From an uncultured Conexibacteraceae bacterium (GTDB lineage Bacteria; Actinomycetota; Thermoleophilia; Solirubrobacterales; Solirubrobacteraceae), in NCBI GenBank assembly GCA_963844665.1, contig CAWJPB010000005.1:717703-781702 (forward strand): a DNA stretch of 64,000 nucleotides, written 5' to 3'. Within the stretch, counting starts at the first letter, position 1. The number at the start of each line of letters is the position of its first letter. Positions 41,666-61,209 of this stretch are shown in pieces. A program made the position numbers and the translations under genes. The notes below the pieces were generated by a model. The model was given only the letters and a program-made list of their open reading frames with translations. It did no database searches and was not told the origin of the DNA.

Positions 41666-43563
41666 GTGATTCGCAGGTGGCGTTTTGGGTTGGCGGCCGT
41701 TGCCGCAGCTCTCGTGGTTGCCGCGTGCGGCTCCTCGTCGCCTGGCAACTCAACCTCGACCGGCGCAGGGACCCGTCAGGTGACAGCAAGCACGGGCACA
41801 CCGATCACCGGCGGCACCGCCTACTGGGCCGAGCAGCCGCTGCAGCCGCCGAACTACATCTTTCCGCTGATCTCCGGCGAGTACTACTCGAACGCGAATG
41901 TCTATGAGTTCCAGACGCTCATGTACCGGCAGCTGTACTTGTACGGAGACAGGGGCAAGCCGAGCGTCGACTACCCGCTGTCACTGGGCGATGCGCCCGT
42001 CTACAGCGACGGTGACCGTGTCGTCACGATCCGCCTGAAGCCGGCCAAGTGGTCAAACGGCGATCCGGTCAGTGCGCGCGATGTGATCTTCTGGATCAAC
42101 CTGCTGAAGGCCAACAGGGCCGATTGGGCCTCTTACGTCCCGGGCGGATTCCCGGACAACGTGGTCTCGGCGACGGCGACCGGCGCCCGCAGCGTGCGGC
42201 TGCGGCTGAACCGCAGCTACAACCCGGTGTGGTTCACCAACAACGAGCTGTCGCAGATCACGCCCCTGCCGATGGCATGGGACAGAACCCGCCTGGACCC
42301 GTTCCACGCAACGCCGAAGCCGACCGATCCGCACCTCCCCGATACCACCGCCGCGGGCGCGAGGCAGGTCTATATGTTCCTGAACGAACAGGCCAAGGAT
42401 CCGTCGAGCTATGCGTCCAGCCCGATCTGGTCGGTCGTAGACGGGCCGTGGAAGCTCTCACAGCTCACCGCCAACGGTGAGGCGACGTTCGTCCCGAACC
42501 CGCACTACGACGGGCCCAACAGGCCGAAGCTGGCGAGGTTCGTCGAGCTGCCGTTCACCAGTGAGGAGGCCGAGTTCTCGGTGCTGAAGGCCGGCTCGTC
42601 GAAGGGCGACATCGGCGGCTCGGCACCGCAGATCTCCGTCGGCTACATCCCCGACACCGACGTCCCTCAGGGCTCGTCGCTGAAGTCCCAGGGTTACCGG
42701 CTGAGTGCGTTCTACCCATACGGCTTCGACTACTTCGAGCCGAACTTCTCAAACCGGCCGTCGGCCCGATCCTGCGGCAGCTGTACTTCCGTCAGGCGTT
42801 CGAGCATCTCGTCGACCAGGAGGGCTGGATTCACGCCTACTACCAGGGGCTCGGCGTTCCGACCTACAGCCCCGTCCCGGCCCAACCCTCGAATCCATAC
42901 TCCAACGGCGAGTCGAAATCGAATCCGTATCCGTTCAGCGTCGCGAGGGCCGCGAGCATCCTCAAGTCTCACGGATGGAAGGTCAGTTCCAACGGCCTCA
43001 CCACCTGTGCCCACCCGGGCACCGGCAGCGGCGAATGCGGCGTCGGCATTCCGGCTGGCAAGCCGTTGCGGTTCAGCCTGATGTACCCGAACGGCATGTC
43101 CTCCACCGATGGCGCGATGGTCGATCTGCAGTCGGACGCGCGACGAGTCGGGATCGAAATCGCGCTCAAGGAGGTCACGACCACGACGATCGATGCGGAG
43201 ATCGAGCCGTGCAAGGCAGGGACCTCGGCCTGCGGCTGGCAGCTCGGCCAGTACGGCAGCGCCTGGGTGTTCGCACCCGACCACTATCCGACCGGTGAGG
43301 AGATCTTCCAGACCGGTGCGCTCGGCAACGTCGGCAGCTACTCGAATCCGACGATAGACAGGCTGATCAAGGCCACGACCACGACTCCGGCGGCAAGCGC
43401 GCAGAGAGCACTCGACGCCTATGCCAACGCCGTGCGCATCCAGTTGCCCGACTTCTGGCAACCGTCGCCGGGCACGCTGCTCAGCTTCCAGTCCAACCTC
43501 GCTGGCGCGACCCCCAACGCCTACGGGTATCTGAGCCCGGAGGAGTGGTACTTCACGAGGTGA
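41666..43563 (+). CDS. Family 5 ABC substrate-binding lipoprotein with one frameshift at about 42754
   Basis: Lipobox VAAC; WSNGDPVSARDV, WSVVDGPWK; a missing C (AAC-CG for AAC-CCG) joins ORF 41666 to the frame of ORF 43066-43563. Confidence 0.85.
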
Positions 43564-44507
43564 CGACCTTCGTACTCCGTCGCCTTGCCCAGGCCGTGGG
43601 CGTGTTGATCGGCGTAACGCTCGTCGTCTTCATCCTCGAGCAGTTGACGCCCGGGAGTCTCCCGCACGCGATCCTCGGGCCGCGCGCGAGCCCAGGGGCG
43701 GTCTCAGCGTTCAAAGCCGCAAACGGGCTCGATCATTCGGTGGTCGTCCAGTACCTCGACTTCCTCGGGCACCTCCTGCGAGGCAATCTCGGCTACTCAT
43801 ATCGGCTCAACCAGAGCGTTGGCTCGCTGGTCGCCCACCAGGCGCCGAACGATCTGATTCTGGTCGGACTCGGGCTCGTCTTTGCGCTCCTGGTGGCGAT
43901 ACCGCTCGGCCTGGCCCAGGCGGCGCGGCGTGACAGCGCGCTTGACCATGCCTTCACCGGATCGTCGCTGGCGCTCTACTCGATGCCGTCCTACTGGCTC
44001 GCGCTGGTGTTGATCGCAGTGTTCAGCATCGGCACGCACCTGCTGCCGCCGGAGGCCGACCAGTCAGGGGCGACCGCCGGCATCCTGGCCGAACCGCTCG
44101 GGCTGGTGCTGCCGGTCCTGACACTGACGCTTGTCAACGTTGCTTGGTTCAGCCGCTACATGCGGTCGTCGGCGATCGACACGCTTGCTCAGGACTACGT
44201 GCAGCTCGCTCGCGCCAAGGGCCTGCCGGAACGACTTGTGATGTCGAGCCATGTGCTGCGCAACTCGCTGCTGACGGTCGTGACGCTGGTCGGCATGTCA
44301 GTTCCGATGCTGCTGACCGCAGGGCTCGTCGTCGAGTACGTGTTCAACATCCCCGGCGTCGGTCTGAGCTACTGGACGGCCGCCTCCAACTCCGACTACC
44401 CGGTCGAGCTCGGGGTGACCGTCGTTGTCGGAGCCGCGACTGTCCTAGGCAGCCTGCTGGCCGATCTCGCCTACGCCGTCCTGGATCCCAGGGTCAGACT
44501 CCGATGA
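43560..44507 (+). CDS. OppB/DppB-type ABC permease
   Basis: QDYVQLARAKGL, EYVFNIPGVG, DPRVR; GTGA overlap. Confidence 0.9.
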   Translation: MTTFVLRRLAQAVGVLIGVTLVVFILEQLTPGSLPHAILGPRASPGAVSAFKAANGLDHSVVVQYLDFLGHLLRGNLGYSYRLNQSVGSLVAHQAPNDLILVGLGLVFALLVAIPLGLAQAARRDSALDHAFTGSSLALYSMPSYWLALVLIAVFSIGTHLLPPEADQSGATAGILAEPLGLVLPVLTLTLVNVAWFSRYMRSSAIDTLAQDYVQLARAKGLPERLVMSSHVLRNSLLTVVTLVGMSVPMLLTAGLVVEYVFNIPGVGLSYWTAASNSDYPVELGVTVVVGAATVLGSLLADLAYAVLDPRVRLR

Positions 44508-45355
44508 CGCGCGAATTCGTGCGGAACCGTCGCGGCATGACCGGGCTCGCGTTGATCGCGGTGCTCGTCCTGTTCTGTTTCATCGGGCCGCTCGTACACC
44601 CGACCGACCAGATCCATGCAAACGTCGCGATCACGAACATGGCGCCCGGTGACGGCCATCCGCTCGGCACCGACGCCAACGGCTACGACGTGCTCGGACG
44701 ACTGATGGCCGGCGGCCGCGCCACGCTGGAGATCGCGTTTGCCGTCGCGTTGCTCGCAACATTGCTGGGTGCGTTCTGGGGTGCATTGGCAGGCATCAGC
44801 GGGGGCGCCCTGGATGCGCTGATGATGCGCATCGTCGACACGCTGCTGGCGCTGCCGGCGATCTTTGTGCTGATCTACCTGGCGACCGTGGTCCAGCCGA
44901 CGGTGGTGCTGCTGATCGTCGTGATCTCGCTGCTGTCGTGGCTTGGTCCCGCACGTCTGATCCGTGGCGAGACGCTCAGCCTTGGCACGCGCGAGTTCGT
45001 CCAGGCAGCGCGGGCGATGGGCGGCGGAAGGACGCGGACGATCGTTCGCCACGTGCTGCCCAACACGTTCGGCACGATCGGCGTGAACGCAAGCTTCCAG
45101 GTCGCTGACGCGATCATCCTGCTGGCGACGCTGAGCTTCCTCGGCTTCGGTCTGGCGGCTCCGGCTGCAACCTGGGGCGGAATGCTCTCCCAGGGCACGT
45201 CGTATCTACTCGACGGCTATTGGTGGGAGGTGTATCCGGCCGGAGTCCTGATCATGGTGACCGTGATCGCCTTCAACCTGGTGGGCGCTGGGCTGGACGA
45301 CGTTGTCAATCCGCGTCGGCGATCGCGGCTCGAGCGAGCAGCAAGCGCTCCTTGA
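44504..45355 (+). CDS. OppC/DppC-type ABC permease
   Basis: HPLGTDANGYD, REFVQAARAMG, ATWGGML. Confidence 0.9.
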   Translation: MTREFVRNRRGMTGLALIAVLVLFCFIGPLVHPTDQIHANVAITNMAPGDGHPLGTDANGYDVLGRLMAGGRATLEIAFAVALLATLLGAFWGALAGISGGALDALMMRIVDTLLALPAIFVLIYLATVVQPTVVLLIVVISLLSWLGPARLIRGETLSLGTREFVQAARAMGGGRTRTIVRHVLPNTFGTIGVNASFQVADAIILLATLSFLGFGLAAPAATWGGMLSQGTSYLLDGYWWEVYPAGVLIMVTVIAFNLVGAGLDDVVNPRRRSRLERAASAP

Positions 45356-49223: not shown

Positions 49224-49820
49224 TCACCTGCCGTCGGCGGCCCCGGGACCGCCCTCATAGCGACTCTCAGTCGCAGCGCGCTGGCCCTGGTAGTGGCTGC
49301 CGAGGCCGGGGCTGCCATAGGGCCGCTGTGCCGGTCTGTCGAGCGTCATGAACGACAGCTGGGCAATCGGCAGATCAGGATAGAGCCGGATCGGCACACG
49401 CGTCAGGTTGTTGAGCTCGAGCGTCAACGTGCCCTCGAACCCGGGGTCGCAGAAGCCGGCTGTCGCATGCACGATCAAGCCCAGCCGCCCGAGGCTCGAC
49501 TTGCCCTCGATCCGAGCCACGATGTCATCCGGGATGCTGACCCACTCGAGTGTTCGCCCCAGGCAGAACTCGCCGGGATGGATCACGAACGGCTCACCGG
49601 GCGGGACCACGACCTCCTCGGTCAGATTGGCCGGCGGGTCCCGCAGATCGATTGCCGTCGCCCGGTGGTTGTGGAAGACCCGGAACGAGTCTCCGAGCCG
49701 CAGGTCGACGCTGGCCGGCTGCACCATCTGAGGATCCCAGGGATCGATCCTGATACGGCCCTCATCAACGAGCTCAAGGATCGTCCCGTCGGAGAGAACG
49801 GATGCAGGCGCGTGACTCAT
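49224..49820 (-). CDS. dcd: dCTP deaminase
   Basis: QPASVDLRL, EGKSSLGRLG, DPGFEGTLTLE, YQGQ. Confidence 0.93.
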   Translation of the reverse strand: MSHAPASVLSDGTILELVDEGRIRIDPWDPQMVQPASVDLRLGDSFRVFHNHRATAIDLRDPPANLTEEVVVPPGEPFVIHPGEFCLGRTLEWVSIPDDIVARIEGKSSLGRLGLIVHATAGFCDPGFEGTLTLELNNLTRVPIRLYPDLPIAQLSFMTLDRPAQRPYGSPGLGSHYQGQRAATESRYEGGPGAADGR

Positions 49821-52255
49821 CGGCGCCGCAGTTTGTCACCCTCAGGGTCGTAAAGCGGCTCAGCCGCAACCTCACCCTGCACCCACTGTCCAAAAATGTC
49901 GATCTCGACGGTCGCGCCGATCGAGACCTCGGATGGCAGGTAGGCGTAGGCGATCGAGCGCTGCACGGCGTAGCCGTACCCGCCGCTGGTGACGCGGCCG
50001 ACGATCTCGTCGCCGACGCGTACCGGCTCGTTCCCGAGCGCGACCGAGCGCGGATCTGACAGGATGACGCACCGCAGGCGCCGCTCAACCGGCCGCTCGC
50101 GCAGCGCGTCCGAGCCGTTGAAGTCCTTATCGGCGGCGACGCAGAAATCGAGTCCGGCCTCGTACGGGCTGTCGTCAGCGGTGATGTCTGCGGCCCAGGC
50201 CCGATAGCCCTTCTCGAGACGCAGCGACTCGATCGCGCGATAGCCGCCGGCGACGATTCCGACCTCCCGCCCCGAATCCCACAGCTCCCGCCACAACCCC
50301 AGTCCGTACTCACTGGGGCAGTAGAGCTCCCAGCCGAACTCACCGACATAGGTCACGCGCAGCGCTCGCACCGGCACGTCGCCGACGGTCAGCTCGCACA
50401 TCCGCATGAAGCCGAAATCCAGCGGGTCAGGGGTGAGCGGCGCCAGCACCGCATGCGCCTGCGGCCCCCACAGCGCGAAGCAGGCCCAGCGTGAGGTCAC
50501 GTCGCTGAGCGCGACGGAGCCGTCATCCGGCAGCTGCCTGCGGATCCAGGCGGCGTCGTGCTGACCGAATGCGGTGCCGGTGACGATCTGGAACAGCTCC
50601 TCGCCGACACGCGTGACTGTTATGTCGGATTCGATGCCGCCGTGGCGGTTGAGCATCTGCGTGTAGCTGATCTGACCGACCTCGCGCGCGACGCGGTTGT
50701 CACAGAGTCGCTCGAGCAGCCCGGCTGCACCCGGGCCCGAGAGCTCGAGCTTGCTGAAGGACGATTCGTCGAACAGGCCCGCGCGCTCGCGTGTGCCCAA
50801 CGCCTCAGCGCCGATCGCCTTGGACCAGTGCATGCCCGCCCACCCACGGGGGCGCAGCTCGGCGTTGCCAGCCGGCGCGTTGGGCTCGTACCAGTTGACC
50901 CGTTCCCAGCCGGACTTCTCTCCAAAGACCGCACCGTGCTCGACGTGCCAGCTGTAAGCCGGCGGAATCCGCAGCGGCCTTCCCGCCAGCCGCTCGTGGC
51001 CGGGGTAGCGGATGTCGTAGTAGGTCTCGTAGACCTCAGTAGTGCGCTTTAGCGTGTAGCTCGGCGAGCGGTACTGCATGCCGAACCGACGGATGTCCAT
51101 CTCCCAGACGTCCAGGTCGGGCTCGCCCGCAACGATCCACTCGGCCATCAACTTGCCCATGCCGCCGGCGCCCGCCAGTCCGTGCGCGCAGAATCCGGCC
51201 GCCACGAAGAAACCGCGCACGTCGCTCTCGCCGAGGCAGAACTCGTTGTCAGGCGTGAACGCTTCCGGGCCGTTGATCAGGCGAGTGACCTGGACATCCT
51301 CCATCAGCGGTACGCGTCTGCGGGAGTTCTCGGCGATCTCTTCAAACCGTGGCCAGTCCTCCTCGAGCAGGCGGCCGTTGAAGTCGGCCGGAATGTGGTC
51401 GACCAGTTGGCCGTTGAGCGCCCACGGAGCGCTGTGGCGCTCATAACCGCCCATCACAAGTCCGGCTCCCTCCTCGCGGAAATAGATCAGCAGGTCGGGA
51501 TCACGCAACGTCGGCAGGTGCACGATCTCACCGTCCGCGTCGCGGTCTCGCTCACGGAACGGCTGCGTCACCAGGTACTCGTGCGCGAACGGCACGATCG
51601 GCACGCGCACACCCGCGAGCCGGCCGATCTCGGCCGCATACATGCCGCCGGCGTTCACCACCACCTCAGCCTCGATCCGCCCCCATTCGGTATCCACCGC
51701 ACGGACGCGACCATCAACCACCTCGATCCCCGTAACGCGAGTGTGCGTGAAGATCTGAACGTCGCCCGCGCGGGCACCGTCGGCCAGCGCGTACGTCAGC
51801 TGCGACGGGTCGAGGTAACCGTCAGTCGGCAGATAGGAGCCGCAACGGACAGCGTCCGTGATCATCAGCGGGAACAGCTCGCGCGCCTCCTCGGCCCCAA
51901 TCAGCTCGAGCGGCAGGCCGAACGTGCGCGCCCACGCAACCTGCCGTAGCACCTCCTGCTCACGCTCCGGAGTGCACGCCAGGCGGATCCCGCCGCACTC
52001 GACCCAGCCGCAGTCCAGCGTGCGGTAGAGCGCCACCGAGTCCATCATCATCCGCGTCAGCGAGACACTGCCGCGCAACTGTCCGACCAGGCCTGCGGAA
52101 TGGAAGGTCGAGCCGCTCGTCAGCTCGTTGCGGTCAAGCAGAATCACCTCCCGCTCGCCGAGCTGGGCGAGGTGGTAGGCGATCGAGGTACCGCCAACGC
52201 CTCCGCCGATGATCACGATCTTGGCCCGCTCGGGCAATTCACGCGGTCGCGGCAT
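49817..52255 (-). CDS. GcvT-family FAD-dependent oxidoreductase (dimethylglycine/sarcosine dehydrogenase-like)
   Basis: IIGGGVGG, GSTFHSAG, GPEAFTPD, C-terminal GcvT folate-binding domain (LRLEKGY). Confidence 0.9.
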   Translation of the reverse strand: MPRPRELPERAKIVIIGGGVGGTSIAYHLAQLGEREVILLDRNELTSGSTFHSAGLVGQLRGSVSLTRMMMDSVALYRTLDCGWVECGGIRLACTPEREQEVLRQVAWARTFGLPLELIGAEEARELFPLMITDAVRCGSYLPTDGYLDPSQLTYALADGARAGDVQIFTHTRVTGIEVVDGRVRAVDTEWGRIEAEVVVNAGGMYAAEIGRLAGVRVPIVPFAHEYLVTQPFRERDRDADGEIVHLPTLRDPDLLIYFREEGAGLVMGGYERHSAPWALNGQLVDHIPADFNGRLLEEDWPRFEEIAENSRRRVPLMEDVQVTRLINGPEAFTPDNEFCLGESDVRGFFVAAGFCAHGLAGAGGMGKLMAEWIVAGEPDLDVWEMDIRRFGMQYRSPSYTLKRTTEVYETYYDIRYPGHERLAGRPLRIPPAYSWHVEHGAVFGEKSGWERVNWYEPNAPAGNAELRPRGWAGMHWSKAIGAEALGTRERAGLFDESSFSKLELSGPGAAGLLERLCDNRVAREVGQISYTQMLNRHGGIESDITVTRVGEELFQIVTGTAFGQHDAAWIRRQLPDDGSVALSDVTSRWACFALWGPQAHAVLAPLTPDPLDFGFMRMCELTVGDVPVRALRVTYVGEFGWELYCPSEYGLGLWRELWDSGREVGIVAGGYRAIESLRLEKGYRAWAADITADDSPYEAGLDFCVAADKDFNGSDALRERPVERRLRCVILSDPRSVALGNEPVRVGDEIVGRVTSGGYGYAVQRSIAYAYLPSEVSIGATVEIDIFGQWVQGEVAAEPLYDPEGDKLRRR

Positions 52256-53312
52256 CAGTGATCGCCGCCGTCGACCGGGCCGCACCGAGAGTCGTCATCT
52301 GGGGGTGTCTGACGAGGATGCAGGAGGCGTCGCGCAGCAGCGCTGCGCGAGCCTCCGAAGACGCTGTCAGACGCCGCCGGGGGCGGCTCGAATGCGGGAG
52401 GGTCGGCGGTGGCGGTCACTAGGTATTCCTCCAGTCGCGGGTCGGCGGCGGCCCGTTCGAGCCGCTCAAAGTGTTCGTCGGCGTAGGCTGTGAAGTCGAA
52501 GTCCAGCTCGGAGATCAGTCCCAGAGACCACACCCCAGGCCGCCTCGCGAGCGTCTGAGACGAGCCGATAGAGCCGCAGCGCCGCAAGCCGCGAATCGCG
52601 CGTGGGCCCGCCGTCCAGGGTCTCGCCGAAGTAGGCCTCCAGCAGGCGCAGCTCCGCAGCCTCGTCAAACTCGTTGTTGACCGCAAGGTTGCCCAGGTCG
52701 AAGTAGCGGTGACCAATCCCGGCGTACTCCCAGTCGACCAGCAGGATCTCGTGCTCGGTCTGGATCAGGTTGCCGGCCAGCAGATCGTCGTGGCACGGCA
52801 CCGGATCGTCGAGCGGCAGCACTGCGGTGATCCGCTCGACCAGCGCCCGGGCGCGCCTCGTACCCGGCGGGCAGCCGCGCCGGCGCGCTCGCGCACGGTC
52901 TGCGCGTAGTCGCTCAGCAGGTCAGGAATCCAGAACCGCACCGGCAACTCGAGTCCGCTGTCGTGGAACGCCCGCAGGGCTCGCGCAACCGGGCCTGGGT
53001 CGGCGCGCAGATCGCCGGGCTCGACTCGGTCGCCGGGAACGAACGCGGTCACCGCGCAGTCGCGCGTCTGCATACAGCAGCTCGGGACCGATCCCGAGGC
53101 TCGCCGCCCGTTCGGTCGCGAGCCGCTCCGCAGCGCGGTCGATGCCGAGCAGCTCGTGTCGCGGCCGGGGAGCCGCAGGACGCAGTCGCGCCCGCCCAGA
53201 CGCAGGCGGTAATTGCGGTTCGTGATGCCACCACTGATCGGCGCCGGCGGCCGTCGACGCCGGGCCCAGCTCGCGCTCGAGCCGTCGCAATCAGCTCGCT
53301 CAGCTCGGACAA
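52255..53312 (-). pseudogene. Choline/ethanolamine kinase-family phosphotransferase, multiply frameshifted (or sequence errors)
   Basis: Fragments SGGITNRNY, VLRLPG, CHDDLLAGN, LVDWEYAG..RYFDLGN spread over several frames; TGATG overlap with the gcvT-like gene. Confidence 0.8.
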
Positions 53313-53415
53313 GCAGTCGAATCGGACCTTGCCCTATAAGGCTCGGCTCATATACCTTCATGGCTGTGCAATCACACAGCCGTGTGGAGCCGATCGTCAA
53401 GGGGAAGGTGGGTCC

Positions 53416-54748
53416 GTGGAGCTCGAAGCACTGAGGGCAGGGAGTCGACGCCGGCGAGATCGAGACCGTCGTGTTCGCACTGACCGACATGCAGGGACGC
53501 CTCCAGGGCAAGCGCCTGACCGCGCGCTACTTCCTCGACGAGGTGCTTGGCCACGGCGCCGAAGGCTGCAACTACCTCCTCGCCGTCGACGTCGAGATGA
53601 ACACCGTCGACGGCTATGCGATGTCGTCGTGGGAGCGCGGATACGGCGACTTCGTGATGCGCCCTGACCTGGCGACCCTGCGGATGGTGCCGTGGGAGGT
53701 GGCAACGGCGATGTGCCTGGCCGATCTCGCCTGGGCGGACGGCGGTCCGACGTCGTCGCCTCGCCGCGCCAGATCCTGCGAGCACAGCTCGCGCGACTGG
53801 CCGAGCGCGGCTGGACCGCCAACGCCTCGACCGAGCTCGAGTTCCTCGTGTTCCGCGACAGCTACGAGCAGGCCTGGAGCAAGGGCTACCGCGAACTCGA
53901 GCCCGGCAACGCCTACAACGTCGACTACTCGCTGCTGGGGACCTCCCGCGTCGAGCCGCTGATCCGCCGGATCCGCAACTCGATGACGGCCGCCGGGCTC
54001 GACGTCGAGAACTCCAAGGGCGAGTGCAACTTCGGGCAGCACGAGATCAACTTCCGCTATGCCGACGCACTGCGCTGCGCCGACAACCACACGGTCTACA
54101 AGAACGGCGCCAAGGAGATCGCCGCCCAGGAGGGCATGGCGATCAGCTTCATGGCGAAGTTCAACGAGCGCGAGGGCAACTCGTGCCACATCCACTTCTC
54201 GATCGCGGACGCGGAGGGCGCGCTGTTCCACCGCGACCGGAAGATGTTCGACGCGTTCCTGGCCGGCCAGCTCGCCCACGCGCAGGAGCTGACGCTGATG
54301 CTTGCGCCGAACATCAACTCCTACAAGCGCTACGCGTCGGCTCGTTCGCGCCGACCACGTCGCCTGGGGCCACGACAACCGCACCTGCGCCCTGCGGGTC
54401 GTCGGCCACGGCGGCGTCGCTGCGGTTCGAGAACCGTTCCGGCGGCGCCGATCTCAACCCGTACCTGGCGCTTGCGGCGTTGATCGCTGCCGGCCTGGAC
54501 GGGCGTCGAGCGCGGGCTCGAGCTCGAGCCCGCCTTCGAGGGCAACGCCTACGAGGCGACCGACAAGCCACGCGTGCCCTCGACACTGCGTGACGCGCGC
54601 GACCTGTTCGCCGCAAGCGAGCTGGCGCGCGGACGCGTTCGGGGAGGAGGTCGTGGCGCACTACCTGAATGCCGCTGACGTCGAGCTCGTGGCATTCGAG
54701 GCGGCCGTGACCGACTGGGAGCGGTTCCGCGGCTTCGAGCGGTTGTGA
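53416..54748 (+). pseudogene. Glutamine synthetase-like gamma-glutamyl ligase (GlnA4/PuuA type), at least five frameshifts
   Basis: DMQGRLQGKR, ELEFLVF, KGECNFGQHEIN, GNSCHIHFS, WGHDNRT, RFENR.GGADLNPY in alternating frames. Confidence 0.85.
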
Positions 54749-55496
54749 ACCGGTCCAACGACGCCGGCAGCACACTCGACGCGGCGGCGTCGCTTGACAC
54801 GGTCTTCGCTCCGGTGCGGTCGCAGACCGCGTTCGAGGAGGCCGTCGACCGGATCGGCACCGCGATCCGGCTCGGCCTGCTGCCGCCCGGCACCCGCCTG
54901 CCGGCCGAGCGCGAGCTATGCGCGAAGCTCGGGATCGCGCGCTCGACGCTGCGCCAGGCGCTGGTCGCGCTCGGCCAGAGCGGCCATCTGCGCGCGATCC
55001 GCGGGCGCGGCGGCGGAACGTTCGTCGTCGACGAGCTGCCGCCGGCACCGCCGCCGCCGGCCGATGCTGATCGACGCGCTGGCGGGCGATGTGGGATCAC
55101 CGCATCGCGCTGCGAGGTAGGCGTCGCCGTGCTCGCCTGCGCGCGAGCCCGGCCCGCGGCGCTGGACGCGCTGGGCGAGCTGGTGACCGCGATGGAGCAG
55201 TCCGCTGGAGGACTTCGCCACCTACCGCCAGCTCGACGTGCGCTTCCACCTCGGGACTGGCCGAGGCGACCGGCAACGCACGGATCATCACGGTCGCCAC
55301 CGAGGTGCAGGGCAACGCGACCCGGCTGATCGCGCTGATCGCGCACCCGGCCGAGGTGCTGAGCTCCTCCAACGTGCAGCACCGGCGGATCCTGGCCGCG
55401 GTCGCGAGCGGCGACGAGGGCGCGACCGCCCGCGAGATGGCCGAGCACCTGCGCGGTACCGAGCACATCCTCGCCGGGCTGCTGCCCGGCGGTTGA
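54745..55496 (+). pseudogene. FadR/GntR family regulator, frameshifted
   Basis: RLPAERELCAKLGIARSTLRQAL, RGRGGGTF, FCD-type C-terminus (MAEHL). Confidence 0.8.
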
Positions 55497-55707
55497 GCGC
55501 AGCCGCAGGGCCCGAGCGGGTCGCTGCAGCGGCGGTGCCTGGCCAGCGGGCCAGCACCGCCGGGCGGAGCTGTGCCGGATGTATGAAGTTGCGCCGCGGC
55601 ACTTGACTTGAGCGACCCCCGTACGTAAGGATCGCGGCCCTAAGGGCCGATTACCGATCCTTTATGTGGGACCGAGCCCGCCATGCGTCGAACACGAGGG
55701 GAGCAGC

Positions 55708-57320
55708 ATGACGACGCGAGACGCTGTCGCCGGACGAACAGCGGCTAGCAGAGCTGGGCTACAAGCAGGAGTTGAAGCGCGGTTGGAGTGGGTTCTCCAA
55801 CTTCGCGATCTCGTTCTCGATCATCTCAGTGCTCGCCGGCTGCTTCACGAGCTACGGCCAGGCGTTCCTCAACGGCGGACCGGTCGCGATCTCGATCGGC
55901 TGGCCGGTCATCAGCTGCCTGATCCTATGCGTCGCGTTCTCGATGGCCGAGCTTGCCTCCGCGATGCCGACCGCGGGCGGGATCTACTACTGGGCCTCGA
56001 AGCTCGGCGGTCCTGGCTGGGGCTGGTTCACCGGCTGGTTCAACCTGATCGGCCTGGTGGCGGTGCGTCGCCTCGGTCGACTACGCGGCAGCGAGCTTCC
56101 TGCATGCTCTGCTCAGCATGCTCGGCGTCAATTTCATCTTCAATTTCGGCGTCATCGCAACCTGCATTACGGCGCACATGTGGTGTTCGCTCTGTTCCTG
56201 ATCATCCTGATCGCCCACGGGCTGATCAACGTCTTCTCGAGCCATCTGGTGTCGCTTTTCAATGGCATTTCAGTCTGGTGGCATGTGATCGGCGTGGCCG
56301 TGATCGTGGTCGTCCTGGTAGTGGCCCCGAGCCATCACGCCAGCCTCTCCTACGTGTTCACGCACCCGCTCGTACGGCGGCTTCAGTTCACCACATGTAC
56401 TGGTTCTACGTGCTGCCACTCGGGTTCCTGCTGACGATGTACACGATCACCGGCTACGACGCCTCGGCTCACGTCTCGGAGGAGACCAACGACGCAGCCG
56501 AGTCGGCGCCGAAGGGCGTCTGGCGGTCGGTCTTCTACTCTGCGGTGATCGGCTGGATCCTGCTGCTGGCGCTGACGTTCGCGGTGCAGAAGTCACAGCT
56601 CAGCGACGATCAGCTCGGCGGGCTTCCCCGCCATCGCGATCCTGCACGACGGCGCTCAGCGCCGACCGCCGCCAAGTTGGTCCTCACGATCTCCGTCGTC
56701 GGCCAGCTGTTCTGCGGCATGGCCTGCGTGACCAGCGCGTCGCGGATGACGTTCGCGTTCTCCCGCGACGGCGCGATTCCCGGCCACAACCTGTGGCGGC
56801 GACTGGGCGCCAACGGAAGACCCCCACGTGGGCGGTTCTGTTCGTGTGCGTGATGGCGGCGCATCGTCACGATCCCCGCGTTCTTCCCCAACAGCGCCGG
56901 TTATCCCGGTCGCGTTCTTCGCGGTCACCTCGATCTCCGTGATCGGCCTCTACATCGCCTACACGATCCCGGTCTTCCTGCGCTGGCGGATGGGTTCCAG
57001 CTTCCAGCCAGGGCCGTGGACGCTCGGCAGGCAAGTACAAGTGGCTGAACGTGATCGCGGTCGTCTGGGTCGCCCTGTGCGTGATCATCTTCTGCCTGCC
57101 GACGTCTCACCGGCTGGCGTCTACTTCTACGAGCGGCTTCAGCTGGGGTTCGGTCAACTATGCTCCGCTGGTGACGCTCGGCGTTATGGCCGTGGTCACG
57201 ATCTGGTACCTCGTGTCGGCCCGGAAGACTTTCACCGGGCCGGTCCGCACGGTGGACGACAACGTCTTCCACGAGGTCGAGGGGCTCGGAACGATCGCGC
57301 CGGGACCCGCCTCGCCGTGA
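55708..57320 (+). pseudogene. APC amino acid/amine permease, multiply frameshifted
   Basis: LGYKQELKR, NFAISFSIIS, AMPTAGGIYYW, TGYDASAHVSEET, SRMTFAFSRDG, NYAP. Confidence 0.82.
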
Positions 57321-57352
57321 TCGCTTCGATTTCGTAGCAACCGAAAGGTCGT

Positions 57353-58728
57353 ATGACGGAAGTGCTGACGGTCCTCGAGCCCGCCACCGAGGCGGTGCTC
57401 GAGCAGGTCCCGAGTGCCGGGGTCGAAGCAGGTTGACGAGGCTGTTGCACGAGCCCGCGCCGCGCTGCCTGCTTGGCGCGGGCTGGCGCCCGGCTGCCAG
57501 AGCGGCCCAGCTGCGCGCGCTCGGCGGACAAGGTCGAGGAGCACCTCGACGAGCTGGCGTTGCTCGAGGCCCGAAACGCCGGCAAGCCGCTCGCTTCGGC
57601 CCGAGGGGAGATCGGGGCAGGTGGCCGAGATCTTCCGCTACTACTCCGGCGCGGCCGAGCGGCTCATGGGCGACACGATCCCGGTCGCGGGCGGCCTGGC
57701 GTTCACCGTCCGTGAGCCGCTCGGCGTCGTCGGGCCTGATCGTGCCGTGGAACTTTCCGCTGACTGATCGCCGCCTGGAAGCTCGGGCCGGCACTGGCGG
57801 CCGGCAACACGGTGGTCCTGAAGCCCGCCGAACTTACGCCGCTGACGGCGCTGCGCTTCGAACAGCTGGTGCTCGAGGCAGGCGATCGCCCCTGGCGTCG
57901 TCAACGTCGTCGCGGGCCATGGCCCGATTGCCGGAGCGCGGCTGGTCGAGCACCCGGATGTCGCCAAGATCGCGTTCACCGGCTCGACCGCGGTCGGCCG
58001 CTCGATCGCGGCCGGCGCCGCGCAGACGATCAAGCGGGTGACACTCGAACTCGGTGGCAAATCGGCCAACATCGTCTTTGCCGACGCTGACCTTGAGAAG
58101 GCCGCGGCGGCGGCACCCTGGGCGGTGTTCGACAATGCCGGCCAGGACTGCTGCGCGCGTTCGCGGCTGCTGGTCGAGGCCTCAGTTGCCGATCGCTTCC
58201 TGGAGCTGATGCAGCCGTACGTGGAGGGCTTCAAGAGTCGGCGATCCGCTCGATCCGACCTCTGACATGGGGCCGCTGATCTCCGCCAAGCAACGCGATC
58301 GGGTGGCATCGTTCGCCGCTGCAGACGGCGCATCCGTCGCGTATCGCGGAACCGCCCCGGACGGCCCCGGCTTCTGGTTCCCGCCGACGGTGCTGGCGCC
58401 GGCCGATCCACAGTCTCCGGCGGTGCGCGAGGAGATCTTCGGCCCGGTCGTGGCGGTGATCCCTTTCCGCGACGAGGAGGAGGCCGTGCGGATCGCCAAC
58501 GATACGATCTACGGCCTCTCAGGTTCGATCTGGACGCGCGACGGCGGCCGCGCCCTGCGGGTCGCGCGCGCGCTCGAGAGCGGAGTGCTATCGATCAACT
58601 CCAATTCGTCGGTGCGCGTATCAACCCCCTTCGGAGGCTTCAAGCAATCCGGCTACGGCCGCGAGCTTGGGCCCCACGCGACCGACGCCTACACCGAAAC
58701 CAAAACCATCTATTACGCAACCACATGA
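57353..58728 (+). pseudogene. Aldehyde dehydrogenase, multiply frameshifted
   Basis: [38 protein letters not shown]. Confidence 0.85.
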
Positions 58729-59468
58729 CACGCCTACAAGACAAAGTCGCAGTTATCACCGGCGCCGCCGGCGGCATCGGCCTGGCCACCGCCGAGGTGT
58801 TCGCCGCTGAAGGTGCACACGTAGTCGGCGTCGACCTGGTCGAGCATCAGGTCGGCGAACTCTCGCTCCAAGCAGACCTCACCGAAGAGAACGCCGTGAT
58901 CGAGATGTACAGAGCCACACGCGAGAAGTTCGGCAAGATCGACGTGCTGTTCAACAATGCCGGGATCTCGCCGACCGACGATGACTCGGTGCTCGTCACC
59001 GGGCTCGACGCCTGGCAGCGGGTGCAGGATGCCAACCTCAAGAGCGTGTTCCTGTGCTGCAAGTACGGGATCCCGCACCTGCTCGAGACCGGCGGCGGCT
59101 CGGTCATCAACACCGCCTCATTCGTGGCCGTGATGGGCGCCGCCACATCGCAGATCTCCTACACCGCGTCAAAGGGCGGGGTGCTGGCGATGTCACGTGA
59201 ACTCGGCGTCGAGTTCGCCAAGAGCGGGGTGCGAGTGAACGCGATCTGCCCCGGGCCGGTCAGCACGCCGCTGCTGATCGAGTTGTTCGCCAAGGACCCC
59301 GAGCGTGCGGCCCGCCGGCTGGTGCACGTGCCGATGGGCCGCTTCGGCCAGGCCGATGAGATTGCCAAGGCGGTGCTGTTCCTCGCCAGTGACGATTCAT
59401 CGTTCATGACCGCGTCCTCACTGCTGGTGGACGGCGGCATCAACGGCGCCTATACGACTCCGCTCTGA
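58725..59468 (+). CDS. Short-chain dehydrogenase/reductase
   Basis: [17 protein letters not shown]; intact. Confidence 0.92.
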
Positions 59469-59553: not shown

Positions 59554-61209
59554 ATGACTGCAGTCACCTCACCCCGTGCACCGTTGAGCGGCCTCTCGCT
59601 GTTTCGCGGCGGCCGCTTCTATATCTGGCTGACGCTGCTGGCGTTGGCGCTCGCGGGGCTCTCGCTGCTTTATCCCTCGACGCCCAGTTATGACCCCTGG
59701 TCGTGGCTGATCTGGGGCCGCGAGATCTTCCACGGCTCGCTGCACATCGCCGGCGGCTCGAGCTGGAAGCCCTTGCCGGTGATCTTCACGACGGTGCTGG
59801 CAGCCTTCGGATCGGCGCAGCCGAACCTATGGCTGCTGATCGCTCGCGCCGGGGCCGTGATCAGCGTGCTGATGACGGCCAAGCTGGCGATGCGGATCAC
59901 CTGGGCACTGACCGTGCGCAGGCGCGGGGACGGCTGGTTCGCGAGTCTGGGCATCGGTGGGCGATCCGCCGCGGTTGCGCCCTCGTTGCTGGCAGGTGCG
60001 ATCGCACTCGTCTGCACCACCTTCACGGCCTCGTTCCCCGGCAACATGCTGCTGGGCTACTCGGAAGGCGTGATGGTCGCCGCCACCCTGATCGCCGCAG
60101 AGCGTGCCTGGGACGGTCACCACCGGCAGGCGTTCGCGCTCGGCATCATCCCGTCGCTGGACCGGCCCGAGTTCTGGATCATCTGGGGACCCTACGGCCT
60201 GTGGCTGATGTGGAGGGACCGTCGCGCGATCCCGCTTGTGCTCGGGCTGGGCGTGCTGATGTTGCTGCTCTGGGTGGTGCCGCAGAAGTTGGGGGGCGGC
60301 ACCGTGCATAGTCTCATCACCCATCCTCGGAAGAACCACTCGCACACGAGCGCGATCTTCAGCTCGTTTCCCCTGTGGACCGAGATGTCGACCAAGGTCT
60401 GGCCGCTGGTGCTCGAGCGCGTCGAGTTCGCCGCCCTGATCCAGATGGCGGTGACCGTCTACCTGGTCGCCAGAGCGCGACAAAGGCTGGGCGGCTGGTG
60501 GAACTCGGTCCGCGACCACGGCGCCGCCGTCGCCGCAGCGCTCGCCTCGACCGCCGGGTTCCTGTGGTGGGTGCTGATCTCGATCGAGACCCAGGCCGGG
60601 TTTGCCGGCAACCCTCGCTACGCGATCCTCGGCGTGATGCTGGTCTACGTCGGCGGCGCGTCAGCCTACGGATGGGCCTGCCTCGGCTTGGCGCGAGTTC
60701 TGGGCGTCGCCGGACAGCGTCTGTCACCTCGGTTGGGAGCCGGCTGGGGCCAGCGGGCCGCCGCCGGCACGGTGGCGATGCTCGCCGTTTTCATCTTTGT
60801 CCCTACCTGGTTCACGCACCGCATGCTCACGATCAAATCGATCCGCTATGACGTGCGCTACCAGGCGCAGCTGCGTGATGCGATCTCCTCGCTGATCGCC
60901 CGCGCGGGCGGCGCCAAGCGAGTGATGGCGTGCGGCAGCGTCATGACCGAGAACTACCAGGTGACGATGGCCGCCTGGTACCTGGGCGTGCGGATCTCCT
61001 ACGTTCAGTCAGCTGGTGACAAGTCCAGGAGGGCCAAGAAAGAGTTGGGTCCGAATGTTGTGTTCCAGAGCCCGATCACGAGTGGCTCGCCCCTGTACCC
61101 GACGCCCGCGGAGATCAAGGCCTGGGAGCAGGGCGGGTCGCACTACAGCGTGTCCAGGCACTATCCGGTGACGCTTTACATGGACTGCTCGCCGTACAGC
61201 AAGACGTGA
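59554..61209 (+). CDS. Polytopic membrane protein, GT-C glycosyltransferase-like
   Basis: YDPWSWLIWG first loop, YSEG, RPE, many TM segments, soluble C-terminal domain. Confidence 0.55.
   Translation: MTAVTSPRAPLSGLSLFRGGRFYIWLTLLALALAGLSLLYPSTPSYDPWSWLIWGREIFHGSLHIAGGSSWKPLPVIFTTVLAAFGSAQPNLWLLIARAGAVISVLMTAKLAMRITWALTVRRRGDGWFASLGIGGRSAAVAPSLLAGAIALVCTTFTASFPGNMLLGYSEGVMVAATLIAAERAWDGHHRQAFALGIIPSLDRPEFWIIWGPYGLWLMWRDRRAIPLVLGLGVLMLLLWVVPQKLGGGTVHSLITHPRKNHSHTSAIFSSFPLWTEMSTKVWPLVLERVEFAALIQMAVTVYLVARARQRLGGWWNSVRDHGAAVAAALASTAGFLWWVLISIETQAGFAGNPRYAILGVMLVYVGGASAYGWACLGLARVLGVAGQRLSPRLGAGWGQRAAAGTVAMLAVFIFVPTWFTHRMLTIKSIRYDVRYQAQLRDAISSLIARAGGAKRVMACGSVMTENYQVTMAAWYLGVRISYVQSAGDKSRRAKKELGPNVVFQSPITSGSPLYPTPAEIKAWEQGGSHYSVSRHYPVTLYMDCSPYSKT

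Follow-up and report, generated by a model that had tools for sequence, protein, structure and literature searches.

A probable GlnA4-type ethanolamine operon divergently joined to a kinase and DMGDH-like gene pair in Solirubrobacterales: a candidate route for N-methylated ethanolamines

The window, a stretch of 64,000 nucleotides from a metagenome-assembled genome (MAG) of an uncultured Conexibacteraceae bacterium from soil, carries what is best read as a GlnA4-type ethanolamine operon joined divergently to a coupled gene pair, encoding a choline/ethanolamine-type kinase and a DMGDH-like flavoprotein. In this reading, to which we assign a probability of about 0.6, the numerous indels in the locus are assembly errors and the cluster works as follows. 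Ethanolamine and its N-methylated forms would enter through the APC permease. Together, kinase and folate-dependent flavoprotein would take off the N-methyl groups as 5,10-methylene-THF, most likely from the phosphorylated amino alcohol, and the ligase would γ-glutamylate the ethanolamine so formed. The SDR and then the ALDH would oxidize the product to γ-glutamylglycine, which a Peptidase_C26 hydrolase encoded elsewhere would split into glutamate and glycine. Both arms would be controlled by the GntR/FCD regulator, acting on an AAGG-N13-CCTT element in the 104-nt divergent region.

All seven genes were found where the original prediction had placed them, and open reading frames, Pfam and tblastn bear out its gene inventory and divergent layout (Table 1). 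These comparisons directly yield the identity of each gene, the orthology and synteny, the indel statistics and the degree to which the element is conserved. The kinase, ligase, regulator, permease and ALDH genes are each split over several frames in the window, and clean Pfam architectures were obtained from their unbroken orthologues in relatives. A genome-wide search found no intact second copy of the cluster. The flavoprotein gene, with no private indels, could also start at an upstream GTG (52285), giving 822 aa. Its product has the Pfam architecture DAO, FAO_M, GCV_T and GCV_T_C, with the covalent-FAD histidine motif GSTFHSAGL in the translation. The ligase starts with GTG after an SD-like GGGGAAGGTGGG; its orthologue in the related locus L001 is 442 aa long, and the regulator orthologue there is unbroken. 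The final 164 codons of the ALDH are unbroken, and the SDR passes the NCBIfam model NF004713 (408.9 bits, cut-off 404).

Table 1. Features of the locus, in window coordinates
Feature	Position	Strand	Remarks
DMGDH/DMGO-like flavoprotein	49817..52255	-	intact; about 812 aa from ATG 52255
Choline/ethanolamine-kinase-family phosphotransferase	52255..53312	-	tblastn, three frames; 7 insertions and 2 deletions
Divergent promoter region	53313..53416	.	104 nt between kinase and ligase
Conserved element	53327-53359		invariant AAGG-N13-CCTT at 53338-58; reverse complement AAGGTATATGAGCCGAGCCTT
GlnA4-type γ-glutamyl-amine ligase	53417..54748	+	Pfam Gln-synt_C on fragments; 5 insertions and 2 deletions
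GntR/FCD (FadR-subfamily) regulator, EpuRI-like	54745..55496	+	Pfam GntR and FCD on fragments; 5 single-base insertions
APC-superfamily permease (TIGR00907, amino acid/choline transporter type)	~55708..57320	+	12 insertions
ALDH, candidate γ-glutamyl-aldehyde dehydrogenase	~57280..58728	+	8 single-base insertions
SDR, candidate γ-glutamylethanolamide dehydrogenase	58725..59468	+	intact; Pfam adh_short_C2

The kinase and flavoprotein pair and its proposed chemistry

The stop codon of the kinase gene and the start codon of the DMGDH-like gene overlap in the sequence TGATG (52253-52257), by which the two are predicted to be translationally coupled. The L001 orthologue of the kinase matches PF01633 at 62.8 bits (gathering score 29) and PF01636 (APH) at 68.5 bits, and intact orthologues carry the Brenner motif CHDDLLAGN and the choline-kinase motif VDWEY. 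Scores against solved structures of the family (LicA 4R77, 3DXQ and others) are 51-117 bits. No curated equivalog was matched, the best NCBIfam model being the guanitoxin kinase GntI (173 bits, cut-off 357), and the relatives retrieved in a homologue search were all from Solirubrobacterales and bore generic names. The thiamine kinase ThiK, raised as a caveat in the original prediction, finds no support, with scores far below the cut-offs of TIGR02721 (71 against 299 bits) and NF007620 (24 against 206).

The characterized enzymes closest to the flavoprotein are DMGDH, DMGO and SARDH; the structures of rat and human DMGDH and Arthrobacter DMGO all score about the same against it (478-503 bits). 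The genome encodes another DMGDH paralogue, 33% identical and ETF-linked, in a typical sarcosine/DMG context, which argues for a different substrate of the flavoprotein in the cluster. The kinase-DMGDH pair is also found in four further families of Actinomycetota. One such genome has the order APC-kinase-DMGDH. Another (L121) has GntR-kinase-EutH-DMGDH-histidine phosphatase, which adjoins a GlnA4 cluster if the single-contig record is circular; it is the only locus with a phosphatase adjacent to the pair, and there is none at the present locus. This conservation across Actinomycetota points to a role of the pair in N-methylethanolamine demethylation, possibly via phosphorylated intermediates, and the pair probably extends the ethanolamine route to N-methylated ethanolamines. 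Which substrates are used, in what order kinase and demethylase act and what part the unlinked hydrolase plays are matters of inference. The predicted amine pathway with a phosphorylation branch and a folate-linked demethylation branch thus survives as the best reading of the comparative data, as an interpretation rather than an observation.

How the two enzymes might cooperate can be suggested only tentatively. N-Methyl- and N,N-dimethylethanolamine may be phosphorylated first and demethylated as phospho-esters, the phosphate taking the place that the carboxylate has in dimethylglycine. Tetrahydrofolate would receive the methyl carbon, and the resulting phosphoethanolamine would be dephosphorylated and enter the GlnA4 pathway. 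Against this, only carboxylates are known as substrates of DMGDH-family enzymes. Such a route, if true, would add a new substrate class to the family and would run, in the catabolic direction, the reverse of the phosphoethanolamine N-methyltransferase route.

It is also conceivable, if rather doubtful, that the demethylase acts downstream. N-Methylethanolamine would then be glutamylated and oxidized to γ-glutamylsarcosine, and the hydrolase would set free sarcosine, from which the DMGDH-like enzyme would produce glycine and methylene-THF. The kinase would serve a separate purpose, such as recycling ethanolamine or choline into the head groups of phospholipids. This agrees with the nature of the nearest characterized enzymes and with seven loci in which DMGDH adjoins the GS arm (the ligase operon) without a kinase. 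Pairs lacking the GS arm adjoin a threonine/serine-dehydratase-like gene, as would fit a flow from glycine via serine to pyruvate. However, a downstream demethylase leaves unexplained both the phylum-wide and often translationally coupled pairing of kinase and DMGDH and the co-operonic ethanolamine-type transporters and phosphatase, and the genome already has its ETF-linked paralogue in a sarcosine/DMG context.

Membrane phospholipids in soil release ethanolamine and its methylated forms in bulk. The γ-glutamyl route is already known, but the literature searched held no bacterial route for N-methylethanolamine and no cluster of a choline kinase with a DMG oxidase. In several actinomycetotal families, a kinase and folate-linked demethylase module is attached to the known route, which provides a specific hypothesis for work on the purified enzymes.

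The frameshift patch and the linkage of the two arms

Compared with five relatives, the window has 41 private indels between 52523 and 58236, consisting of 37 insertions and 4 deletions and confined to the kinase, ligase, regulator, permease and ALDH genes. The original prediction had touched on frameshifts only in passing. There are 34 single-base insertions, only five of which extend a homopolymer. No indels occur in 6.8 kb of flanking genes, and the five relatives have none at the 41 sites. Mismatches are at the same level in the patch (11.8%) as in the flanks (12.2%), and private substitutions in the patch are not in excess and retain their third-codon-position bias. Nowhere else in the genome are frame switches as dense as in this patch, and two further patches show the same indel signature in ORFs that are unbroken in relatives. 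Another high-switch region, C5:9-14 kb, had no homologue in the five relatives searched, while C1:538-548 kb, a run of short same-strand ORFs, was taken for an ordinary operon of small genes.

The lack of extra substitutions, the retained third-position bias, the indel-free flanks and the two additional patches all suggest a local consensus-error patch of a long-read MAG, and the organism most likely has these genes unbroken. This conclusion draws on comparative statistics. That the five genes are instead real pseudogenes, the pathway having been lost in this lineage with only the flavoprotein and SDR kept, is improbable. The breaks are indeed limited to one functional cluster, the two intact genes that flank them might serve other uses, and L001 and L004 each lack one cluster gene, a sign that the locus is evolutionarily labile. 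However, bacterial pseudogenes have a deletional bias, the opposite of the 37 insertions against 4 deletions seen here. Substitutions are not in excess and keep their third-position bias, both patch edges fall inside genes, and at least two other patches of the same signature affect unrelated genes. On this reading, the MAG contains patches, kilobases in size, in which single-base insertion errors give the look of pseudogene arrays, and apparent gene decay in it needs read-level checks before it is interpreted.

Of 63 informative related loci, 30 show the complete seven-gene order and 39 combine the kinase with the GS arm. In a further 14, the kinase-DMGDH pair lacks the GS arm and adjoins a threonine-dehydratase-like gene instead. 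In an order-level sample of Solirubrobacterales, ligase and DMGDH orthologues lie at most about 12 kb apart wherever both occur, in varied gene orders, and this proximity has been retained in at least three families despite rearrangements. The arms are thus co-conserved, as the original prediction required, and the seven-gene arrangement is, on this comparative evidence, not due to chance. At the same time, the two modules are separable, as seen from the 14 pair-only loci and from the roughly 27 of 47 sampled ligase-bearing genomes in which no DMGDH orthologue was found.

This separability, with each module alone in many genomes, might suggest that the arms are merely neighbors: a plain ethanolamine operon next to a pair acting on some other, choline-derived or guanidino substrate. 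The NCBIfam model that the kinase matches best is GntI, though well below its cut-off, and some genomes encode a GntC/VioD-like enzyme close to the pair, both of which point the same way. Such an accident of location is quite improbable, considering the nearness kept through rearrangement in those three or more families, the EutH and same-family APC permeases that accompany the pair elsewhere, and the promoter region of about 60-100 nt, with its conserved element, that the arms have in common.

The ligase arm, its candidate operator and the unlinked hydrolase

By sequence similarity and gene order, the plus arm is the orthologue of the GlnA4 ethanolamine cluster. Against PDB 5dm3, which we take to be the Chromohalobacter salexigens enzyme, and 11zs, its ligase reaches 401-405 bits at about 50% identity; with the other GS structures, its score does not exceed 174 bits. 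The ligase is 61-72% identical to ligases within GlnA4-arranged clusters of other Actinomycetota, and in six such loci the ALDH (60-67%) and SDR (64-71%) follow in the same order. The predicted GlnA4-like γ-glutamylation cluster is upheld by these scores and by four-gene synteny, at 60-71% identity for ligase, ALDH and SDR, with loci resembling SCO1611-1615 and Rv2857c-2860c. (The tallies of GlnA4-like and kinase-DMGDH loci include the unpublished genomes G218, G249 and G300; no specific claim rests on them.) From HMM and PDB scores, direct comparison with PuuA and synteny, the ligase is placed in the GlnA4/5DM3 clade and not with GSI, GMAS or PuuA, being far below the cut-offs of TIGR00653, TIGR03105 and NF045547. 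A PuuA-type polyamine ligase in a cluster degrading putrescine-like amines, as the Puu-like overall set of ligase, ALDH, permease and regulator might suggest, is hardly credible given 29% identity to E. coli PuuA, 201.7 bits against the NF045547 cut-off of 650, the absence of PuuB-type oxidase and PuuE homologues from the locus, and the synteny with GlnA4 clusters at 60-71% identity.

Of 45 related loci with an FCD regulator, 44 carry the AAGG-N13-CCTT element, and the genome has a single copy of it. In L004, where the regulator is missing, the element is degenerate; in L108, a locus without the kinase-DMGDH pair, it is kept upstream of the ligase. Having no Rfam match and no covariation in RNAalifold (-1.1 kcal/mol), it was rejected as an RNA structure and is likely to be a protein operator. 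A scan for the simple GntR consensus T.GT-N-AC.A found none. The GntR/FCD protein, 36% identical to the divergent regulator of an SCO1614-like locus (L114), would presumably bind this element.

No γ-glutamyl hydrolase of the Peptidase_C26 or FGase type is present in the window, as the original prediction had noted for PuuD-type amidotransferases. In other Solirubrobacterales families, a PuuD-type Peptidase_C26 gene lies directly 3' of the ligase, a slot occupied here by the GntR/FCD gene. The sole strong Peptidase_C26 of the genome is found about 417 kb from the cluster (C5:353498-354304) and is 47-55% identical to in-cluster hydrolases of other families. Of 29 genomes of the family, 28 have this unlinked type, ligase-free ones among them, and it has no specific tie to the pathway. 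PF05013, the family named for the hydrolase of the S. coelicolor cluster (PMC6529630), has no match in the genome. The suggestion that the flavoprotein might replace the hydrolase is not supported, since relatives with an in-cluster Peptidase_C26 also have the DMGDH-like gene and this genome has its unlinked one.

Comparison with known systems

Among the closest described systems is SCO1610-SCO1615 of S. coelicolor, with the γ-glutamylethanolamide synthetase GlnA4 and the repressor EpuRI (PMC6529630). Both have a GS-like ligase, an ALDH, a dehydrogenase and a GntR-type regulator, and a permease is found in other Streptomyces. L114, which is arranged like the published SCO1611-1615, matches the window at 67% (ligase), 60% (ALDH), 66% (SDR) and 36% (regulator) identity. 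In contrast to the S. coelicolor cluster, the window locus lacks a hydrolase, has the divergent kinase/DMGDH-like pair, and carries its regulator co-directionally in the slot held by the hydrolase in other lineages.

In M. tuberculosis, Rv2857c-Rv2860c presumably encode, in this order, SDR, AldC, an amidotransferase and GlnA4. The corresponding order ligase-hydrolase-ALDH-SDR is found in L115-L119 and in the “type B” loci of Solirubrobacterales, whereas the window lineage has the GntR/FCD gene in place of an in-cluster hydrolase, plus a permease. The M. tuberculosis GlnA4 has weak activity in vitro (PMC13740247). The γ-glutamyl ethanolamine pathway of C. salexigens, Agrobacterium tumefaciens and Phaeobacter MED193 has the same four steps, performed by a glutamylase, an alcohol dehydrogenase, an aldehyde dehydrogenase and an amidohydrolase, but there the transporter is of the TRAP type and the regulator an RpiR protein, and neither a kinase nor a demethylase is present (PMC10132767).

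The flavoprotein has the four-domain architecture, covalent-FAD histidine motif and GcvT-type folate domain of Arthrobacter DMGO (1PJ5), rat and human DMGDH and MABO of pAO1, but differs in being coupled to a kinase and in having no adjacent ETF. Its partner shares the APH/choline-kinase fold of choline/ethanolamine kinases (LicA 4R77 and the 3DXQ family), with HxDxxxxN and DWEY in intact orthologues, but differs in its low scores to solved members and in having no curated equivalog. The FAD oxidoreductases PbfC and PbfD, which act on N-methyl-2-aminoethylphosphonate, are only distantly related to the flavoprotein, lack a GcvT domain and cleave the other C-N bond; they nevertheless provide a precedent for PF01266 enzymes that oxidize N-methyl amines with a phosphorus oxyanion instead of a carboxylate (PMC10590968).

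Gene content of the cluster and origin of its broken genes

The window (contig C5, positions 717703-781702) comes from G000, a 3.27 Mb MAG of six contigs and 66% G+C. ORF listing and Pfam/NCBIfam scans recovered every gene named in the original prediction: on the plus strand an arm made of a GlnA4-type GS-like ligase, a GntR/FCD regulator, an APC permease, an ALDH and an SDR, and on the minus strand a pair made of a choline/ethanolamine-kinase-family gene and a flavoprotein resembling dimethylglycine dehydrogenase (DMGDH). The closest named relatives of the latter all belong to Solirubrobacterales/Solirubrobacteraceae MAGs, many of them long-read soil assemblies.

Features of the divergent cluster (window coordinates)
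Feature	Position	Strand	Basis
Flavoprotein, DAO+FAO_M+GCV_T+GCV_T_C, 822 aa, intact	49817-52285	-	ORF listing, Pfam/NCBIfam scans
Kinase-family gene, in fragments	between flavoprotein and SDR	-	ORF listing, Pfam/NCBIfam scans
Conserved element, ~33 nt, in divergent promoter	53327-53359 (core 53338-53358)		comparison of 45 loci
GS-like ligase, in fragments	between flavoprotein and SDR	+	ORF listing, Pfam/NCBIfam scans
GntR/FCD regulator, in fragments	between flavoprotein and SDR	+	ORF listing, Pfam/NCBIfam scans
APC permease, in fragments	between flavoprotein and SDR	+	ORF listing, Pfam/NCBIfam scans
ALDH, in fragments	between flavoprotein and SDR	+	ORF listing, Pfam/NCBIfam scans
SDR, intact	58725-59468	+	ORF listing, Pfam/NCBIfam scans

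By tblastn, each broken gene is distributed across two or three frames; clean domain architectures were taken from unbroken orthologues in two relatives (L001 and L004). In L002 and L005, the reading frames of the complete seven-gene set are open. The kinase stop overlaps the flavoprotein start in a TGATG at 52253-52257, so that the pair is translationally coupled, as had been proposed, and the flavoprotein probably begins with the ATG at 52255. The ligase starts with a GTG at 53417, preceded by a purine-rich SD-like sequence, which makes the divergent region 104 nt long. A gene directly downstream of the SDR (59554-61209) encodes a multi-pass membrane protein of 551 aa that matches no Pfam or NCBIfam family and is kept only in the closest relatives (L001-L006, 58-86% identity).

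The breaks could reflect either decay of the cluster or errors in the assembly. In a nucleotide alignment with L001, mismatch is 11.8% inside the broken stretch and 12.2% outside it, and 29 gap openings fall within 52428-55496 versus none in the flavoprotein gene. When changes were polarised against five or six relatives, 37 insertions and 4 deletions between 52523 and 58236 were found to be private to the window copy (insertions and deletions, respectively: kinase, 7 and 2; ligase, 5 and 2; regulator, 5 and 0; permease, 12 and 0; ALDH, 8 and 0). There are no private indels in the flavoprotein, dCTP deaminase, citrate synthase, SDR or 551-aa membrane protein genes, and the aligned relatives have essentially no indels at the window's broken sites. 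Of the 34 single-base insertions, whose base composition (G12 C10 T6 A6) is in line with the genome, only 5 adjoin an identical base. Private substitutions in the broken genes show no excess over the L001 lineage and a strong third-position bias (codon positions 1/2/3: ALDH, 9/9/44; ligase, 10/9/29; permease, 10/5/36). Bacterial pseudogenes are expected to show a deletion bias, and real decay with about 40 indels should also have left hundreds of unconstrained substitutions; neither is found, which argues against decay.

Frame switches, scored genome-wide with a codon-position G+C HMM, reach their maximum in this region, at 25 per 6 kb (median 6; 99.9th percentile 21.5). Two other high-switch regions, C1:50700-53900 (L084 1700-4650) and C3:579000-581000 (L082 3100-4900), likewise have an excess of private single-base insertions in genes that are intact or have long open frames in same-genus genomes, suggesting that the assembly contains kilobase-scale low-quality stretches. 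On these statistical grounds, drawn from the consensus rather than from reads, the breaks in the five genes are attributed to a local patch of consensus errors with a probability of roughly 85-90%. Elsewhere in the window, two ORFs on one strand overlap (43545-44507 and 44144-45355), with a frame switch near 44500.

Association of the two arms and their divergent promoter

Sixty-three related loci extend 8 kb or more upstream of the flavoprotein gene; 39 of them have both the kinase and the GS arm, and 30 of these match the window in carrying all seven genes in the same order. The GS arm occurs without the kinase in 7 loci, a paralogous ligase cluster is found in 3, and the kinase-flavoprotein pair lacks the GS arm in 14. 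In an even sample of 121 genomes across the order, the ligase orthologue is present in about 47 and that of the flavoprotein in about 20; where both occur, they are almost always within 12 kb of each other, in several gene orders. The modules are thus separable yet repeatedly kept together, in agreement with the expected co-conservation.

Where the pair stands without the GS arm (L109 and 14 related loci, including L022, L028, L029 and L037), the gene divergent from it is in every case threonine/serine-dehydratase-like. Genes for a GntC/VioD-like PLP enzyme, an SDR fusion and a 566-aa protein that belongs to no known family are often in the vicinity. In one genus (L102 10174-13908; L103 5229-10220), the place of the choline-kinase-like gene, between the GS arm and the DMGDH-like gene, is taken by genes for an FGGY-family kinase and a Na+/H+-exchanger/TrkA_C protein.

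The region between ligase and kinase is about 16-90 nt long in 45 related loci, 44 of which share GAAGGTATAgGAAnnnnGCCTTA, with AAGG-N13-CCTT invariant. The element occurs once in G000 and is absent where the pair stands without the GS arm. A genome without the pair (L108) keeps it upstream of the ligase, and at L004, where the regulator gene has been lost, it is degenerate; across relatives its presence goes with that of the FCD regulator. Rfam gave no match for it, and no RNA structure was supported by covariation. The element is read as a candidate operator of the GntR/FCD regulator, which, given the element's position, would control both promoters when bound there.

The hydrolase step

No Peptidase_C26 (PuuD-type) or FGase gene was found within the 64-kb window, as the original prediction held, nor any FGase gene in the whole genome. 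In other Solirubrobacterales families and one genus of the window's own family, a Peptidase_C26 gene (234-301 aa) directly follows the ligase; the 234-aa copy, at L104, matches only profile positions 53-219, and its ORF is possibly cut short. In the window's lineage, the GntR/FCD gene occupies this slot. The suggestion that the flavoprotein stands in for the hydrolase finds no support, since at L102-L107 a DMGDH-like gene lies near an in-cluster hydrolase and the two coexist.

The sole strong Peptidase_C26 gene of the genome, at C5:353498-354304, is 47-55% identical to the in-cluster hydrolases (51-73% among themselves) and 31% to PuuD. Of 29 genomes sampled in the family, 28 have this stand-alone type, among them the ones that lack the ligase. 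The unlinked gene is a plausible, though not specific, candidate for the last step of the pathway. The same region (C5:340000-358000, L100) encodes a DMGDH paralogue, 33% identical to the window flavoprotein, in a typical sarcosine/DMG setting with ETF, an Fe-S/CCG oxidoreductase, serine dehydratase alpha, an APC permease and a glycerophosphodiester phosphodiesterase; the Peptidase_C26 gene and a threonine ammonia-lyase gene are found 7 kb downstream.

Comparison with GlnA4-type clusters and the role of the pair

The ligase orthologue scores 401-405 bits (~50% identity) with PDB 5dm3 and 11zs; no other GS-family structure gives more than 174 bits. It does not reach the cut-offs of the NCBIfam models for GSI, type III/GMAS and PuuA, and is only 29% identical to E. 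coli PuuA. Orthologues with 61-72% identity occur in several other families (in one, in 8 of 8 genomes of 7-10 Mb), and matches at E <= 1e-110, more distant homologues included, in 84 of 301 sampled Actinomycetota genomes. A second GS-like ligase of G000 (C2:24000-40000, L101), 34% identical to PuuA, lies with a cytochrome P450, a ferredoxin-reductase-type flavoprotein, an acetoacetate-decarboxylase-family protein, an ALDH and an APC permease, a set reminiscent of gamma-glutamyl-amine hydroxylation pathways of the isopropylamine (Ipu) type.

Six ligase loci from other Actinomycetota were compared. Five have ligase, hydrolase, ALDH and SDR consecutively, the order of Rv2860c-Rv2857c in M. tuberculosis. 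The ALDH and SDR of the six are 60-67% and 64-71% identical to those of the window, and no DMGDH-like or kinase gene lies within 9 kb in any of them. The sixth, with SDR-ALDH-ligase divergent from a GntR regulator and hydrolase, matches the published arrangement of S. coelicolor SCO1611-SCO1615 (PMC6529630). By homology and synteny, the plus arm belongs to the GlnA4-type ethanolamine clusters, as first proposed, save for the hydrolase, which is unlinked here. The route leads from ethanolamine via gamma-glutamylethanolamide, an aldehyde and gamma-glutamylglycine to glutamate and glycine (PMC6529630, PMC10132767). It is backed by experiment in S. coelicolor (PMC6529630) and stated as demonstrated in C. 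salexigens and A. tumefaciens too, and its operon was shown to be induced in Phaeobacter (PMC10132767).

Kinase homologues (32-47% identity) adjoin flavoprotein homologues (42-64%) in four further families. L123 has an APC permease, kinase and flavoprotein in one direction, and L120 two mirrored pairs. L121 (4121-10465) has an operon of GntR/UTRA, kinase, EutH, DMGDH-like flavoprotein and histidine phosphatase; it ends 128 nt from the end of a single-contig 3.19-Mb record (G201), at the start of which a GlnA4 cluster, SDR-ALDH-hydrolase-ligase, lies on the same strand (L125 951-5141). Should this record be circular, the two modules would be neighbours in this genome as well.

The co-operonic ethanolamine-type transporters, the phosphatase in one operon and the stop/start overlap point to N-methylated ethanolamine-type amines as substrates, on which kinase and flavoprotein would act via a phosphorylated intermediate. 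PF01266 enzymes can oxidise N-methyl amines bearing a phosphonate instead of a carboxylate (PMC10590968). In the main alternative, the flavoprotein would come after the hydrolase in the pathway, with sarcosine as substrate.

The known part of the system is the GlnA4-type ethanolamine cluster; in the literature searched, no description was found of an attached kinase/DMGDH-like module. What is added to it here is an architecture specific to this lineage, in which the regulator occupies the position of the hydrolase, a candidate operator in the divergent promoter, and the recognition that the apparent decay of the window copy is very probably an assembly artefact.
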